The position numbers were made by a program, and so were the translations under genes. The notes beneath the pieces were generated by a model. That model searched no databases. It was not told the origin of the DNA and was given only the letters and a program-made list of their open reading frames with translations. A stretch of 64,000 nt of DNA from Prevotella sp. (GTDB lineage Bacteria > Bacteroidota > Bacteroidia > Bacteroidales > Bacteroidaceae), in contig JAFTGI010000102.1 of the NCBI GenBank assembly GCA_017458195.1, forward strand, positions 13,556 through 77,555, written 5' to 3'. Position 1 is the first letter of the stretch. Every line of letters begins with the position of its first letter. Below, one piece after another: positions 24,465-63,383 of this stretch.

Positions 24465-24530
24465 ACCACGGATTACGCGGATTAAACGGATTCAAAATAA
24501 AAAATCCGTTTAATCCGCGTAATCCGTGGT
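24465..24530. repeat. Perfect 28-bp-stem hairpin made of 9-nt repeats, between convergent genes
   Basis: ACCACGGATTACGCGGATTAAACGGATT-loop-AATCCGTTTAATCCGCGTAATCCGTGGT. Confidence 0.92.
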
Positions 24531-30089: not shown

Positions 30090-30147
30090 AAAACGGTGCT
30101 TTTTGAAGGTAATATACCCCTATATTACTTTCGAAAAGCACCGTTTT
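30090..30147. repeat. Solo hairpin matching the core of the 198-bp MITE; probable terminator
   Basis: AAAACGGTGCTTTTTGAAGGTAATATA-CCCC-TATATTACTTTCGAAAAGCACCGTTTT, 16 bp after the stop codon. Confidence 0.85.
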
Positions 30148-37205: not shown

Positions 37206-37873
37206 GATTCCAAAGATGATAATATTTGTCTGACGACGGCGGCGTCGGTCACGCCGGTGCCGCCGGAGCACGAGCCGTGGATCTCAGTGGTGCCCACCTG
37301 GTCGAGAATCAGGCGGGCATTATTTGTGTTCACGCCTCCGCCGGGCATGATGATGAGGCGCCCGTCGCTGAGGTCGCGCAGCTGCCGCAGCAGGGCGATG
37401 CCCTCCTCGGCGCGCGGCTGCTGGCCGGAGGTCAGGATGCGGCGGCAGCCCAGCGCGATGATCTGCTCAAGGGCCACGAGCGGCTGGCGACAGACGTCGA
37501 AGGCGCGATGGAACGTTACGGGCCTGTCCTCGGCCGCCTGCATCAGGCACGCCATGGCCGCCAGGTCGATGTCGCCCTCAGCGGTCAGTGTGCCCACGAC
37601 GATGCCGTCGGCGTAGGGCAGGGCAGCCCGGATGTCGCGCTCCATTAGGCGCACCTCCAGGCGGCTGTAAACAAAGTTCCCTTCACGTGGCCGCACCAGC
37701 ACGTGGATGGTCAGCGCGGGGTAGAGCTCGTGCACCAGACTGAGCAGTCCTATCGACGGTGTCAGTCCGTCGAGCGACAGCGCCGAGCATAGTTCTATGC
37801 GCTGTGCGCCGCCCTCCACGGCCGCTGCCACACTCTGCAGCGAACCGCAGCAAACTTCAAGTACATTCATCAT
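37202..37873 (-). CDS. cutC: Copper homeostasis protein CutC
   Basis: LEVC, RIELCSAL..DGLTPS, TFHRAFD, RILTSGQ, IMPGGGV. Confidence 0.93.
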   Translation of the reverse strand: MMNVLEVCCGSLQSVAAAVEGGAQRIELCSALSLDGLTPSIGLLSLVHELYPALTIHVLVRPREGNFVYSRLEVRLMERDIRAALPYADGIVVGTLTAEGDIDLAAMACLMQAAEDRPVTFHRAFDVCRQPLVALEQIIALGCRRILTSGQQPRAEEGIALLRQLRDLSDGRLIIMPGGGVNTNNARLILDQVGTTEIHGSCSGGTGVTDAAVVRQILSSLES

Positions 37874-39192
37874 TCAACCACTTCCACTACGTAGTCGGGC
37901 AGGGCGTCGTGCTCGGGCAGCTCGATGGTCAGCGTCTGGGCCTTCTTGTTGAAGTGGCTGGTCAGGGGCTCGCGGGTGATGAAGTCGACGACCTGGGCGG
38001 GCTTCTTCTGGCAGGGCATGTCGATGTGGCAGGCCGAGCGCTCCGTGACGTGCAGGAACAGGCGGGCGGGCTGCTTCTTCCCGGCGGCGGGCAGCAGCGT
38101 CGAGACGCCCCAGGCCGACTCCTCGACGGGGCCGCGCTGAGTGCCGTAGATGGTCTCGCCGTAGGCCTGCATCCACTGGCCCACGCCGTGCAGGCGGTTG
38201 ATGGCCGTGCGGGGCAGCTCGCCATTGGGCTGCGGGCCGATGTTGAGCAGCAGGTTGGCGCCCTTCGAGGCGCAGCGCACGATGAGCTGCACGAGCTCGT
38301 CGACCGACTTGTAGTTCTGGTCCTTCACCTTGTAGCCCCAGGCGCCGTTCATCGTCTGGCACATCTCTAAGGGCAGCTTCGAAATCTTCTGACCCTCAGA
38401 GAAACCGGCCGTGTTCTCACCCGGCACGTCGCGCTCGAACATCTGATAGTCCTCGCCCTCGATGACGTCAGAGTGGTGGTTGTTGCCCAGCAGCACCGAG
38501 GGCTTCACCGAGTGCAGGTAGCTGTAGAACTCGGGCATGCGCCAGTCGAAGGGCTCTGCGTCGGAGTCGTGGTCCCAATTGCCGTCGAACCAGAGTGCGT
38601 CGACGTTGGGATACTGCGTCAGCAGCTCGCGGCACTGATTCTTCATGAACTGCATGTAGTGGTCGAAGTCGGGCTGCATGGCGCGCCCGTTCTTGAGTCC
38701 GGTGCGGCCGAGGGGGTAGTCCGTGCGATACCAGTCGAGCGTGGAATAATAGAGGTGGAGGCTGAGGCCCCCGTCAGCGCAGGCCTGGGCCAGCTCGCCG
38801 ACAATGTCGCGCTTGAAGGGCGTGGCGTCCATGATGTTATACTTGCTCTCCTTCGTGGGCCACATCGAGAAACCGTCGTGGTGGCGCGAGGTGAACGTGA
38901 CGTACTTGGCGCCCGACGACTTGAAGGCCTCGACCCACTCCTTGGCATTGAACCTGACGGGATAGAAGCACGAGGCGGCCTTCGAGTATTCCTGTCCGTC
39001 GAGCCCGCCGCTCTCCAGATACCATTCGCCCTGCGCAAACTCGGCGTAGATGCCCCAGTGGATGAAGATGCCCAATCGGAAGCCCTCGAACGTGCGGCGT
39101 GCCTCGAGGTTCTCCGGCGTCGGCACATACTGTGCCCAGGCGCTGAGGCCCATCGTGAGGGCCATCAGCAGTAGTGTCAGTTGTCGTTTCAT
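37870..39192 (-). CDS. Alpha-L-fucosidase (GH29)
   Basis: GIFIHWGIY, TSRHHDGF, LWFDGNWD, NLLLNIGP; signal peptide. Confidence 0.92.
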   Translation of the reverse strand: MKRQLTLLLMALTMGLSAWAQYVPTPENLEARRTFEGFRLGIFIHWGIYAEFAQGEWYLESGGLDGQEYSKAASCFYPVRFNAKEWVEAFKSSGAKYVTFTSRHHDGFSMWPTKESKYNIMDATPFKRDIVGELAQACADGGLSLHLYYSTLDWYRTDYPLGRTGLKNGRAMQPDFDHYMQFMKNQCRELLTQYPNVDALWFDGNWDHDSDAEPFDWRMPEFYSYLHSVKPSVLLGNNHHSDVIEGEDYQMFERDVPGENTAGFSEGQKISKLPLEMCQTMNGAWGYKVKDQNYKSVDELVQLIVRCASKGANLLLNIGPQPNGELPRTAINRLHGVGQWMQAYGETIYGTQRGPVEESAWGVSTLLPAAGKKQPARLFLHVTERSACHIDMPCQKKPAQVVDFITREPLTSHFNKKAQTLTIELPEHDALPDYVVEVVE

Positions 39193-39305
39193 GTCCTTTT
39201 GTTTTTCGTTGTTAGTCAATTACGCCACAAAGATACAATTTTTTCGGCAAACGGGAGCCGGAAGGACAAAAAAATCTTTGGTGGTTTCGCTACTCTTTAG
39301 ATATT

Positions 39306-39589
39306 TTTCTCATTCGTGGCGACCGCACCATTGACCAGATGGTGCAGGCAGCCCGCTCAGGAAAACAGAATATTGTGGAAGGCTCGGCCGATGGAGTCAC
39401 TACCAGAAGCAACTGGAAGATACGTTCATCAAGGAGGGAGGCATCAGGGAGCGTATGACTGCAGCCCGTCTGGGCTACCGCACCAACCAGCGCGAGGAGA
39501 TAGCGCGGTTGAAGCAGGAACTGGACCGGGCCCGGCGGCGCATCGCCGAATTGGAAGCAAGGCTGGCAGAGAAAGAGAGGCAGGGATAG
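39306..39589 (+). pseudogene. Four-helix-bundle (23S rRNA IVP/Avd-like) protein with suffix domain; truncated and internally deleted
   Basis: FLIRGDRTIDQMVQAARSGKQNIVEGSADGVT, then a frame change near 39400 to YQKQLEDTFIKEGGIRERMTAARLGYR...EKERQG*; not in the ORF track. Confidence 0.8.
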
Positions 39590-39693
39590 TTTTTCTAGAT
39601 TGGCTAGATTTTCTAGTCTTACTAGTATATCTAGTCTGAATAGTATGTCTAGTCTGACTAGTATGTCTAGCCTTACTAGTATTTCTATCCCAG
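39586..39693. repeat. 12 x 9-nt CTAG-cored tandem repeat
   Basis: ATAGTTTTT CTAGATTGG CTAGATTTT CTAGTCTTA CTAGTATAT CTAGTCTGA ATAGTATGT CTAGTCTGA CTAGTATGT CTAGCCTTA CTAGTATTT CTATCCCAG. Confidence 0.92.
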
Positions 39694-39712
39694 CTAAGAA
39701 GAATCAATATCT

Positions 39713-39910
39713 GGCTCAGTCCTAAAAACTGGTTGCAGAAACTGTGGCTCTTTACTGGCAAATAAACGTCACTTTGATTACAAAGTGGTGCTTTTTGAAG
39801 GTAATATACCCCTATATTACTTTCGAGAAGGACCCCTTCTTGACTTGCGAAGAACCATCTCACCGATAGGGAAGGACCGATATTATTCAACCGGTTATTC
39901 AGACTGAGCC
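39713..39910 (+). mobile_element. 198-bp MITE, copy 1
   Basis: Terminal inverted repeats GGCTCAGTC...GACTGAGCC; flanks CAATATCT / CAATATAT (7/8 target duplication). Confidence 0.88.
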
Positions 39911-39931
39911 CAATATATGTCGACAAGGTAT

Positions 39932-40400
39932 CTATTGAACGACGACCTTGCGGCGGCTGCTGACGTAGAGGCCCCTGCGGAGCGCCTGTGATGCTGACGC
40001 GAGGGGCGACACCCGGCGGCCGGAGAGGTCGTAGAGAGGGTGGGGGGCACTCCCGGCGTCCCAGCCGGAGCGGATGTCGCCGTAGTAGCTCTGGTGATGG
40101 CCGCGGGCCCAGGTGATGCGCTCCTGACCGTCGGGCAGGGTCTCGCAGTGGTCGGGCTGCGGCTGCAGGATGATGTGGCGGAAGCCGGGCGCCTGCTCGT
40201 CGTAGCCGATGCCGAGCATGTAGCGGAACATCCACTCGCCGACACCAGGGCACGAGGATGCCGGCGTCGCTCCAGGCACTGCCGCCGAATCCGGCATAGC
40301 CCGTGGGAGCCGTGTCGGGGAAGGCACCGTCGTCGCGCTGTCCGTCGCGCATGTCCTGCATCCATTTGCGGTAGAAGGTCTCGAGGTTGGCGAAGTACAT
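39932..40400 (-). pseudogene. GH78 alpha-L-rhamnosidase remnant with multiple internal deletions and a T9SS tail
   Basis: FYRKWMQDMRDGQRDDGAFPDTAP...AWSDAGILVPW joined out of frame to VGEWMFRYMLGI..PGFRHIILQPQP..SYYGDIRSGW, then LYDLSGRRV..RGLYV..RKVVVQ*. Confidence 0.8.
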
Positions 40401-40486
40401 GGCCGATGTACAAAATTCAAACCCTTACTTTGACACATCTGGAAATCCGCAATATCCGTGGTAAAATAAATCTTCAAGAACGTGAG

Positions 40487-42106
40487 TTATTTTGTTCTGG
40501 TTTGGGGCATCGGCTCGACGAGCGTCAAGTCGATATAGTCAATGTTTGGGGCGAAGCCGACGGGCTGGCCGAGGCGGATGGTGTTGTAGCCGGGATGGAG
40601 CGTCACGTCGAGCTCGAGACTGCTCCAGGCGGTGTCCCATGCGCCGCTGTTAAGGTTGTCGAAGAAGCCCAGGTCTTTGCCATTGACGTGAACCTGCAGG
40701 GAGCGGTCCTCGCCCGAGGCATAGCGGACGGTCAGGCGGTAGCGGCCGCCGGTGGTGCTGTAGACGGCGGGCCACTCCATATAGTTGCCCGCGAGATTGC
40801 CCAGCCAGCCTATGTACCAGCCCTGGTCGGCCGATGCTGCCTCCATGGGGCGGGCGTTGGGGAAACCGTTGAGTTCCTGATACTTGCAGGCCCAGGCCTC
40901 CTCGGCCTGATAGCGTGTGCGGTCGGTGCGGGCACCGCTGATGAAGTAGGCCTGTGAGCCGTGGGCGGGAATCGTGACGGTGATGCGCTGCCCGTCGGCG
41001 TAAGCAGCATCCTGACCGGTCAGGCAGTCATGCAGCCGGACAGCGCCCTTCATTTCGAGGGCGGGCAGGCTGAGGTCTATCTGGCGCTGGCTGTCGCTCA
41101 GGTTCATGACGACGACGGCCCGCTTCGGTCCGTGCAGCTGTTCCATGTCCTTGGCCACGACATAGACATCGCCGGAGCGCTGGACGACCGGTGCACCGAG
41201 TCCGAGCGGATCCTGGTTCATGGCAATGAGATCCTTGTTGCAGAGCAGCTTGAGCGACGCCTCGGGAATCTTGGTCATGTCGCAGCCGACGAGCAGCGGC
41301 GACGAGGCGATGCACCAGTAGGCCATGTGGGTGACCTCCTCGTCGTGGCTCAGCGTGCGGCCTATCTCGAGCATGTCCATGTCGTTGTAGTGGCCGGCGC
41401 CGGTGTAGGCCTGAATGTAGAGGTTCTCCTTGATGATGTCGCGGACGGAGGCCCAGCCACACCAGATGTCGCCCGTGGTGCGCCAGGAGTCGGCGATGTC
41501 GCTGATCCACGTGCCGGGATAGGCCCACCGGCAGACGTTGAACGTGATTTTCTTGCCCAGCCGTGCCTCCTGGCGGCGGATGGCCTCGCTGATGCGGGTG
41601 TACTGCGTGCGCTCATTGAGGCTCAGGTGGTTGCCGCCGCAATAGTCGACCTTGATGAAGTCGAAGTTCCAGTCGGCGAAGTAGAGCTGGCAGTCGTCGT
41701 CCTCATGGCCGTAGAAACCCACGTTGAGGCCCCAGGCATGATGGTTGCCGGAGCCGCAGGTGTTGTCGCCCGCATCGCTGTAGATGCCGGCCTTGAGCCC
41801 CAGGCGGTGGATATAGTCGGTCAGGCTGCGCATGCCGCCGGGGAAGCGCTCCTTGTTGAGCCGGAGCTGACCGTCGCGGCCGCGGCCGTCCCAGTAGCCG
41901 TCGTCGATGTTGACATACTTATAGCCGGCGTCAGCCAGTCCCGTGCTGACCATGGCGTCGGCCTGACTCTTGATGAGACTCTCGCTGATGTTGAGTGCGA
42001 AGGTGTTCCATGAGCTCCAGCCCATCGTCGGCGGGTTGAAGTCTTGTGCGTGGGTTGCGCCGGCCGTCATAGCAGCCAGGGCAATCAGAAGTTGTCTTGC
42101 TTTCAT
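40487..42106 (-). CDS. Alpha-galactosidase (GH27) with C-terminal CBM35/CBM6-like module
   Basis: PTMGWSSWN, NIDDGYW, FIKVDYC, SWRTTGDI, YNDMDMLEIG; APNIDYI carbohydrate-binding-module end. Confidence 0.92.
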   Translation of the reverse strand: MKARQLLIALAAMTAGATHAQDFNPPTMGWSSWNTFALNISESLIKSQADAMVSTGLADAGYKYVNIDDGYWDGRGRDGQLRLNKERFPGGMRSLTDYIHRLGLKAGIYSDAGDNTCGSGNHHAWGLNVGFYGHEDDDCQLYFADWNFDFIKVDYCGGNHLSLNERTQYTRISEAIRRQEARLGKKITFNVCRWAYPGTWISDIADSWRTTGDIWCGWASVRDIIKENLYIQAYTGAGHYNDMDMLEIGRTLSHDEEVTHMAYWCIASSPLLVGCDMTKIPEASLKLLCNKDLIAMNQDPLGLGAPVVQRSGDVYVVAKDMEQLHGPKRAVVVMNLSDSQRQIDLSLPALEMKGAVRLHDCLTGQDAAYADGQRITVTIPAHGSQAYFISGARTDRTRYQAEEAWACKYQELNGFPNARPMEAASADQGWYIGWLGNLAGNYMEWPAVYSTTGGRYRLTVRYASGEDRSLQVHVNGKDLGFFDNLNSGAWDTAWSSLELDVTLHPGYNTIRLGQPVGFAPNIDYIDLTLVEPMPQTRTK

Positions 42107-50878: not shown

Positions 50879-51075
50879 GGATCAGTCTGAATAACCGGTT
50901 GAAAATATCGGTCCTTCCCTATCGGTGAGATGGTTCTTCGCAAGTCAAGAAGCGGTGCTTCTCGAAAGTAATATAGGGGTATATTACCTTCAAAAAGCAC
51001 CGCTTTGTAATCAAAGTGACGTTTATTTGCCTGTAAAGAACAACCGTTTCTGCAACCGGTTTTTCGGACTGAGCC
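50879..51075 (-). mobile_element. ~197-bp MITE, copy 2 (inverted)
   Basis: GGATCAGTCTGAATAACCGGTTG...CAACCGGTTTTTCGGACTGAGCC; no clear target duplication. Confidence 0.88.
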
Positions 51076-63185: not shown

Positions 63186-63383
63186 GTCTCAGTCCGAAAA
63201 ACTGGTTGCAGAAACTGCGGTTCTTTACAGGCAAATAAACGTCACTTTGGTTACAAAGTGGTGCTTTTTGAAGGTAATATACCCCTATATTACTTTCGAG
63301 AAGGACCGCTTCTTGACTTGCGAAGGACCATCTCACCGATAGGGAAGGACCGATATTTTTCAACCGGTTATTCAGACTGATCC
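63186..63383 (+). mobile_element. 198-bp MITE, copy 3, with perfect 8-bp target duplication
   Basis: GTTGTTTC at 63178-63185 and at 63384-63391 flanks the element. Confidence 0.92.

Follow-up and report, generated by a model that had tools for sequence, protein, structure and literature searches.

Remnant of a suffix-type four-helix-bundle gene with a CTAG-cored nonamer array in Prevotella, a candidate variant of the intervening-sequence-type element

Introduction

In Coxiella burnetii, the intervening sequence of the 23S rRNA gene carries tandem GACAGAT heptamers directly before the ATG of its S23p gene, the copy number of these heptamers differs between strains, and the 5' cut by RNase III has been placed experimentally at the first repeat (PMC4990558). 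Intervening sequences of 23S rRNA that bear an open reading frame are also found in Leptospira, Brucella and Xanthomonas (cited in PMC4990558). With the exception of the Coxiella heptamers (PMC4990558), the literature searched does not link TIGR02436, TIGR04258 or GxxExxY genes to flanking tandem arrays. Heptamer simple-sequence repeats are also described in their own right, as the TAACTGA repeats of Beggiatoaceae (PMC4679880) and as the cyanobacterial STRR, and the TAACTGA direct repeats were treated without this gene family (MacGregor 2015).

The S23p/IVP family is very common, structurally solved and without known function, and short-period (7-10 nt) repeats are without a known partner; as described below, both travel together in one genus and across phyla. 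The four-helix-bundle superfamily further includes Avd of diversity-generating retroelements, an oligomer that binds nucleic acids.

Here we analyse a decayed locus in a 64,000-nt stretch of a Prevotella genome (contig JAFTGI010000102.1), referred to as the window throughout. The locus does little for the host and serves as the entry point to a pattern that extends through the genus and beyond. The original prediction, made from the letters alone, had described a four-helix-bundle gene remnant fused to a nonamer repeat and had proposed the encoded protein as the partner of the repeats.

Results

A dead copy of a suffix-type gene

Window positions 39306-39589 (plus strand) hold a suffix-type four-helix-bundle gene (TIGR02436 plus TIGR04258) as a dead copy, which is most readily dissected by comparison to L037, which comes from another species of the genus and was the closest intact relative found. 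Its parts are the following.

39306..39400, plus strand: 5' gene fragment, comprising the end of helix 1 and helix 2, with the DQMVQAARSGKQNIVEG motif (L037 alignment, TIGR02436/PF05635, alignment A3)
39400..39401, plus strand: internal deletion junction, removing helix 3, an insert and the first part of helix 4 (two L037 BLAST segments abut at 39400; helix map of the model)
39401..39589, plus strand: 3' gene fragment, running from the end of helix 4 through the C-terminal half of the suffix domain (FIKEGGIRERMTAARLGYR) and a coiled-coil tail to the TAG stop (TIGR04258; 75% identity to L037)

The two unannotated peptide segments that had been pointed out were both recovered, in different frames. 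Segment 1, GDRTIDQMVQAARSGKQNIVEGS, lies in the frame of 39309, the translation reading ...IRGDRTIDQMVQAARSGKQNIVEGSADGVT, and segment 2, LEDTFIKEGGIRERMTAAR, in the frame of 39413, which stays open to the TAG stop at 39587-39589 and translates as LEDTFIKEGGIRERMTAARLGYRTNQ followed by a heptad-like tail. Segment 2 matches TIGR04258 at E 6.5e-9 (35.6 bits, profile positions 26-48 of 49), and its residues 22-57 give coiled-coil-type Pfam matches. In a genome scan with TIGR04258 the remnant reaches 39.1 bits (profile coverage 22/26-48 of 49), below the curated cut-off of 40 bits, intact L037 scoring 72.4 bits. For segment 1 the TIGR02436 and PF05635 matches are weak (E 0.03, 14.5-14.9 bits; positions 28-64 and 32-69 of the respective profiles), and no above-cut-off match to either family spans the bundle of ~106-109 residues in the remnant, which covers profile positions 28-69 only. 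With most of the gene missing, these scores stay under the family cut-offs; the remnant is a truncated descendant of a TIGR04258 member, not an intact member.

Alignment by BLAST to L037 localizes the lesion. Nucleotide identity is 82% between window 39306-39400 and subject 386-480, and 75% between window 39400-39576 and subject 742-918. L037 subject 481-741 is absent, so that the deletion at 39400/39401 amounts to ~262 nt (87 codons plus 1 nt). The frames of the two segments thus differ as originally proposed, through this internal deletion instead of a simple frameshift. Upstream of 39306 nothing corresponds to the first ~41 codons, bearing out the suggested loss of the 5' gene end. Elsewhere in the same genome (G000), three suffix-type and seven plain TIGR02436 genes are intact, and one plain gene is broken.

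The AlphaFold2 model of L037 (mean pLDDT 87.4) is a four-helix bundle with helices at residues 23-42, 48-70, 75-102 and 140-172, followed by a long C-terminal helix at 175-218. The best Foldseek matches of this model are two bundles of the S23p family, 2gsc (target TM 0.80-0.83, probability 1.00) and 2rld (probability 0.99), a result that describes the fold of the relative and not of the remnant. Searching PDB sequences with the clade profile returns one weak match, again 2gsc (E 0.004), and L037 scores 26.5 bits against PF05635 (E 8e-6), below the cut-off of 33.8. Together with the TIGR04258 match, these data sustain the predicted assignment to the four-helix-bundle family with suffix domain. 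Mapped on the L037 model, the remnant retains, apart from the tail, only helix 2 and the end of helix 4; with helix 1, helix 3 and half of helix 4 lost, it cannot fold as a bundle.

A decay zone between glycosidase genes

The remnant is flanked by a GH29 fucosidase gene (37870-39219, minus strand) and an alpha-galactosidase gene (40487-42106, minus strand), is antisense to both and does not lie in an operon junction. The following features separate it from the alpha-galactosidase gene.

39713..39912, no strand assigned: ~200-bp MITE, 17 nt past the hairpin described below, bounding the element; other copies at 63188-63380 (96%) and 50879-51075 (94%, inverted)
39932..40480, minus strand: alpha-L-rhamnosidase pseudogene, two out-of-frame fragments, with PF17389 positions 57-108 of 339 (six-hairpin domain) and PF17390 (C-terminal domain) in different frames

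The MITE is represented in the window by three copies (94-96% identical) and a 48-nt fragment at 30095-30142, with about 60 BLAST matches in the genome, and the rhamnosidase pseudogene is without most of its catalytic domain. All of 39.2-40.5 kb is a zone of decay. When 30 relatives were searched at the DNA level for the orthologous site of the remnant, only the fucosidase gene was found, at 71% identity in G013, where it has a different neighbour, a DnaQ-like exonuclease; none of these 30 relatives is an informative species for the timing of gene death.

The neighbourhood bears on one alternative, namely that the remnant derives from the accessory protein Avd of a diversity-generating retroelement, with which it shares superfamily PF05635 according to the literature. 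We give this reading almost no credence. The neighbouring genes encode glycosidases, and the open reading frame list for 37.5-41.5 kb together with Pfam searches of the neighbours (glycosidases only) yields no reverse-transcriptase-like ORF in 37.5-42.1 kb; a suffix domain and nonamer arrays are not features of diversity-generating retroelements, and the structure search places 2gsc and 2rld at the top, not Avd. The reading was rejected because of the missing reverse transcriptase.

The nonamer array and its hairpin

Repeats begin where the gene ends, and they fold back on themselves.

39586..39696, plus strand: tandem nonamer array of ~12 units with CTAG core and variable 5-nt spacers (Tandem Repeats Finder, direct repeat family D1, unit list)
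39580..39694, no strand assigned: imperfect hairpin formed by the array itself, arms 39580-39625 and 39649-39694 (inverted repeat I1, 46-nt arms, 72% complementary)

Tandem Repeats Finder reports periods 9 and 18 across 39587-39687 (rows 39587-39616, 39613-39680 and 39612-39687), with eight in-register copies at 9-nt spacing from 39586. In agreement with the original prediction, the array begins on the stop codon itself (39587-39589). CTAG is retained in 10 of the 12 units (deviating units ATAG, ATAG and CTAT) and the core is conserved at 45/48 positions of the remnant array, the spacers varying between units, with TCTGA and TATGT alternating in an 18-nt super-period. A search of this genome with the pattern CTAG(N5)x4, i.e. 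four cores at 9-nt spacing, gave three matches and none for the reversed control pattern. The remnant array is the sole CTAG array of this assembly, which is 76% complete, so that further copies or arrays may be unassembled.

At the base of the hairpin, GGGATAG (last codons plus stop) is paired with CTATCCC. The minimum free energy of the RNA is -50.7 kcal/mol (z -7.3, 0/200 shuffles) and the DNA fold has z -6.0. Against nulls that preserve CTAG and permute or shuffle the spacers, z amounts to -3.1 and -4.2, with 3/500 and 1/500 reaching the observed value. Both hairpin arms lie 3' of the ORF, and upstream, in 39150-39305, neither a complementary stretch nor CTAG periodicity was found beyond a 13-nt match at chance level (I4). 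It had been suggested that an upstream arm was lost here; L037 has a 3' array only and the remnant array holds both hairpin arms, and hence no lost upstream arm is required. The remnant ORF is accordingly not enclosed by complementary flanks forming an excision stem, as is typical of intervening sequences, and Rfam gave no family match anywhere in the window and no rRNA.

A long hairpin that outperforms core-preserving nulls is what would be expected of an intervening element acting at the RNA level only, with self-pairing stems cut by RNase III and looped out of host transcripts, cores that are co-inherited and no recognition by the protein. This is the main rival to the interpretation developed below. 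The cleavage at the Coxiella heptamers, being experimental, also speaks for it, as do the plain genes presented next, while the suffix-type loci do not; on balance we consider it unlikely.

Plain genes reside in heptamer-armed cassettes

All four-helix-bundle loci of this genome (12/12) adjoin 7-, 8- or 9-nt arrays. At the eight plain genes (8/8), the upstream and downstream 7/8-nt arrays are reverse-complementary, each copy using its own unit, with the upstream arm ending 0-30 nt before the ATG and the downstream arm beginning 5-30 nt past the stop, and the cassettes sit in tight junctions between co-directional host genes. Complementary arms that abut start and stop codons inside operon junctions are compatible with an element operating through RNA pairing alone. 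The arm-gene-arm cassettes postulated for intact elements thus exist for plain genes; complementary 7/8-nt arrays abutting start and stop are present neither at the remnant locus nor in its subfamily, which has 9-10-nt arrays that are direct and often one-sided.

Genome-wide, complementary array pairs are bimodal, about 97 having gaps of 0-150 nt and 10 having gaps of 350-470 nt, and these 10 long-gap pairs consist of the eight plain cassettes, one GxxExxY (TIGR04256) gene and one false pair. An array pair on C186 with a 413-nt gap was considered as a cassette and rejected, as it is located inside host coding sequence. The arm units of gene-bearing cassettes are those of the largest gene-less families, namely AAGTGAG (36 arrays), AACATTG (35), AAAATTG (24) and AAAAAAGT (29). 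The proposal that gene-less hairpins in the window are cassette remnants therefore gains from the units held in common with gene-bearing cassettes, yet these are the units of plain genes and not of the remnant. It is plain paralogues at other loci of the genome that partner the heptamer hairpins of the window; the remnant, which had been put forward in that role, belongs to a clade that goes with CTAG nonamers, of which the genome has a single array.

In total, 328 scored heptamer arrays of G000 fall into 57 unit types, nine of which hold two thirds, and some of the arrays are in frame within coding sequences, e.g. C186:20005-20483.

The association extends to 114 plain loci, comprising those of this genome, 29 from the genus and 80 from about a dozen phyla (including Clostridia, Cyanobacteria, Campylobacterota, Verrucomicrobia and Planctomycetes). 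Arrays are found on at least one flank at 107 of the 114 (both flanks 81, one 26, none 7), with period 7 in 89. Unit similarity declines with protein divergence (Mantel r -0.25, 0/2000 permutations). The null for inverted flank scores was first inflated by shared AT-rich units, and hence counts above its 95th percentile are given, which are reached in 48/78. At the protein level, plain relatives are >50% identical across a dozen phyla.

Suffix-type genes carry direct arrays with a clade-specific core

We examined 29 suffix-type loci from 29 other genomes of the genus. Arrays of 8-11 nt occur at the gene ends in 26 of them, the remaining 3/29 having no array, and array bases make up 15.2% of the sequence near gene ends versus 0.48% elsewhere in the same loci (0.5-1.5 kb away), a 32-fold difference. 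Where both flanks carry arrays, these are direct and not inverted, with direct scores of 31-62 versus inverted scores of 9-40 in 11/11 loci (null 9.8 +/- 3.4). Complementary flanking arrays, the check proposed for intact homologs, are thus encountered in plain genes, and direct ones take their place in the suffix type. Many suffix-type loci are one-sided, and the array of L037 has purine-rich spacers throughout, which makes pairing impossible beyond the cores. A stem, moreover, requires complementarity, not a fixed 4-nt core with free spacers. Direct and one-sided arrays, together with the fixed core and free spacers, argue against a purely RNA-level element.

The short palindromic core of the array unit follows the suffix-type protein tree. 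In the 16-row clade that includes the remnant's nearest relative and is distinguished by coiled-coil tails (bootstrap 100), the core is CTAG at 12 of 15 array-bearing loci, CTATAG at two and another sequence at one; outside that clade CTAG is seen at 0/14 array-bearing loci, the units of other clades being TATAAGCC, AATCAGA, GGGAC, GCCCAT, GGTAGGT or CGGAAT. The remnant shares its tail, nearest relative and array core with the CTAG clade. The locus is hence a non-functional relic from the CTAG clade of the S23p/IVP superfamily, plus the nonamer array that accompanies this clade. As the CTAG state is confined to a single clade, it counts as one evolutionary event, and clade-specific cores could result from co-inheritance alone.

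Suffix-type arrays are often read through as low-complexity protein tails. We also note a suffix-type paralogue in this genome, L003:1348-2100 (G000:C222:23272-24024), in which a terminal topoisomerase-I-type C4 zinc ribbon (PF01396, 34.7 bits) replaces the coiled coil and CGGAATnC 8-mers with a palindromic core are present on both flanks. Judged from its sequence, this ribbon hints at nucleic-acid binding.

Co-occurrence across the genus

Of 61 genomes of the genus, 23 contain the CTAG(N5)x4 pattern, the reversed control giving 0 matches in 59 genomes and 3-5 per strand in two. A TIGR04258 gene is found in 20/23 genomes with CTAG arrays versus 11/38 without (odds ratio 16, p 1.3e-5, values overstated by the relatedness of the genomes), and loci fetched from these 11 genomes without CTAG arrays have other repeat cores or another period. 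Gene and array can also be uncoupled. CTAG arrays occur in G018, G034 and G040 with no suffix-type gene detectable with profile A3, which indicates that no resident gene is needed for arrays to persist or spread; in G011 the gene is intact and the pattern matches only four times, consistent with its own array alone, and thus an intact gene need not mean spread. In G018 (99% complete) the pattern matches 53 times, those listed being located within about 0.7 Mb of one contig (G018:C3:1210315-1898284).

Insertion at orthologous junctions

One suffix-type cassette of this genome is an 817-nt insert (hairpin, gene, hairpin) between two host genes. In the nearest species the same junction consists of a stop codon, 3 nt and the ATG, with no array, from which it follows that the arrays arrived with the gene or after it. 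Comparisons among relatives show that gene and arrays are inserted together as a single unit, in most cases where co-directional host genes adjoin tightly, and the presence/absence polymorphism suggested as a check is indeed seen at orthologous junctions.

Two junctions are occupied repeatedly. The hot spot L002:968-1790 (G000:C165:1310-2117), compared over L192-L220, holds a suffix-type cassette here, nothing in the nearest species, one-arm GGTAAAAA arrays in three species, and plain cassettes with GGTAAAAA/TTTTTACC arms in G020, G022 and, judged by coordinates, likewise G036. At L002:965-1000 (G000:C165:1306-1340) the first GGTAGGT unit overlaps the host stop codon, reading GGGTAG and continuing with GT, and GGGTAA stands at the nearest naked site. 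Two origins are conceivable: the target sequence seeded the unit, or the host gene received a new stop codon with the insert. The second junction, L006:819-1241, compared over L162-L190 in 29 species, is in some species naked (25-40 nt) and in others occupied by a one-arm heptamer array, an empty hairpin or a gene-bearing cassette, the latter in this genome, G008 and G013. Its empty two-arm hairpins are built from different units, AATTGAC, AATTAGG, CTTTGAA, AATTAAG and CAGTTTA.

A further gene family occurs in comparable surroundings. All four GxxExxY (TIGR04256, PD-(D/E)XK-like) genes of G000 lie inside long hairpins, at the following positions.

G000:C189:5468-6031, GxxExxY locus
G000:C229:26300-26935, GxxExxY locus
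G000:C184:2140-2630, GxxExxY locus
G000:C183:41480-42150, GxxExxY locus

Two of the four have tandem ACGGATT-type 8/9-nt arms, and about 27 gene-less arrays of that unit type are present in the genome. The window hairpin at 24468-24528 (ACGGATTAA / AATCCGTGT) belongs to the unit family that flanks GxxExxY genes, not four-helix-bundle genes. These genes look like a second cargo family of a similar element.

The junction data also bear on the question of whether genes and arrays are functionally linked at all. Arrays could instead be born by slippage at AT-rich junctions or hairpins, into which the genes insert preferentially as safe havens. The variety at the two operon junctions, with arrays of different units, one-arm arrays, empty hairpins or nothing across species, is in keeping with this explanation, as are the surplus of gene-less over gene-bearing hairpins in this genome and the arrays without a gene in G018. 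It is at odds with the naked site orthologous to the 817-nt cassette, which lacks any array, with unit types that track the protein clade, with the density of arrays at gene ends and with the use of the same units by gene-bearing arms and the largest gene-less families, and we therefore regard it as improbable.

Lastly, the proteins may be resident chromosomal regulators or nucleoid-type DNA-binding proteins, neither mobile nor selfish, with the arrays as their own operator sites. A palindromic core at fixed spacing does resemble operator arrays, and coiled-coil and zinc-ribbon tails are found on the proteins. Against a resident role stand the patchy distribution of TIGR04258 genes in the genus (31/61 genomes, 0-5 copies), the presence/absence at orthologous junctions, the protein conservation of plain relatives across phyla, and the occurrence of pseudogenes, e.g. 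the remnant and a copy on C65. We consider such a role very improbable.

Discussion

Based on the analysis of the remnant and comparisons to its intact relatives, we rate the locus itself as ordinary debris, and the pattern that it exposes as an undescribed variant of the intervening-sequence-type element. Our preferred interpretation, for which we see the case as evenly poised, treats the locus as a dead copy of a selfish element, composed of gene and repeats, in which the protein would recognise the repeat core. We picture the protein as an oligomeric helical bundle, tailed by a coiled coil or zinc ribbon, that may bind the repeated core on DNA or RNA, and this recognition would serve the upkeep or spread of the gene-plus-array element, gene-less arrays presumably being non-autonomous or orphaned copies. 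Where arrays are transcribed inside host operons, the paired repeats could be cut by RNase III, by analogy to the Coxiella 23S intervening sequence, and such cutting would make the insertion tolerable to the host.

More tentatively, and with doubts that outweigh our confidence, S23p/IVP bundles in general could be sequence-specific partners of short-period arrays, with a 4-7-nt core per clade (CTAG nonamers in the case described here, heptamers for plain genes), and the unit could be a widespread selfish element that seeds 7-10-nt arrays and hairpins in and between genes of many phyla. If true, this would account for the long-recognised excess of heptamer repeats and, at the same time, for a protein family to which no function has been assigned since 1993. 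The comparison yields concrete cognate pairs, e.g. a CTAG-clade protein and CTAG nonamers, and makes it worthwhile to look again at the numerous in-frame repeat insertions of housekeeping genes. Annotation is likely to mistake such arrays for low-complexity protein tails, and gene callers overlook dead copies, as at this locus.

Among described systems, those based on Avd differ in that the remnant locus has no reverse transcriptase and no template or variable repeats. The intact relatives correspond in sequence and predicted fold to NCBIfam TIGR04258 and TIGR02436 and to the structures 2gsc (Xcc0516) and 2rld (BT_0352); these families are annotated without function, TIGR04258 as 'four helix bundle suffix domain-containing protein' and TIGR02436 as 'four helix bundle protein'.

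With the 23S intervening sequences the elements have in common the PF05635 / TIGR02436 superfamily, short tandem repeats abutting the ORF, paired flanks forming a stem and a position within a host transcription unit. The remnant locus, in contrast, is not in rRNA and has glycosidase neighbours; its gene has an additional TIGR04258 suffix and coiled-coil tail, the copy is dead, and the repeats are 9-nt units with a CTAG core, direct not inverted, placed 3' of the gene rather than enclosing it.

The bacterial heptamer repeats (STRR, TAACTGA) are likewise tandem 7-nt units, mostly intergenic and of patchy phylogenetic spread. Reports on them name no partner gene, whereas the arrays described here are tied to four-helix-bundle genes, and the units at the remnant measure 9 nt.

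The REP/REPIN and RAYT systems offer a parallel in organisation, with a gene flanked by its own repeat type and many gene-less repeat copies elsewhere; in the same manner, each gene-bearing cassette of this genome matches a gene-less repeat family. RAYTs, however, are tyrosine (HUH) transposases, and here only four-helix-bundle families were matched, with no transposase fold. In place of the fixed ~20-nt palindromes of REP, the present elements use tandem 7-10-nt units, and several cognate pairs of gene and repeat reside in one genome.
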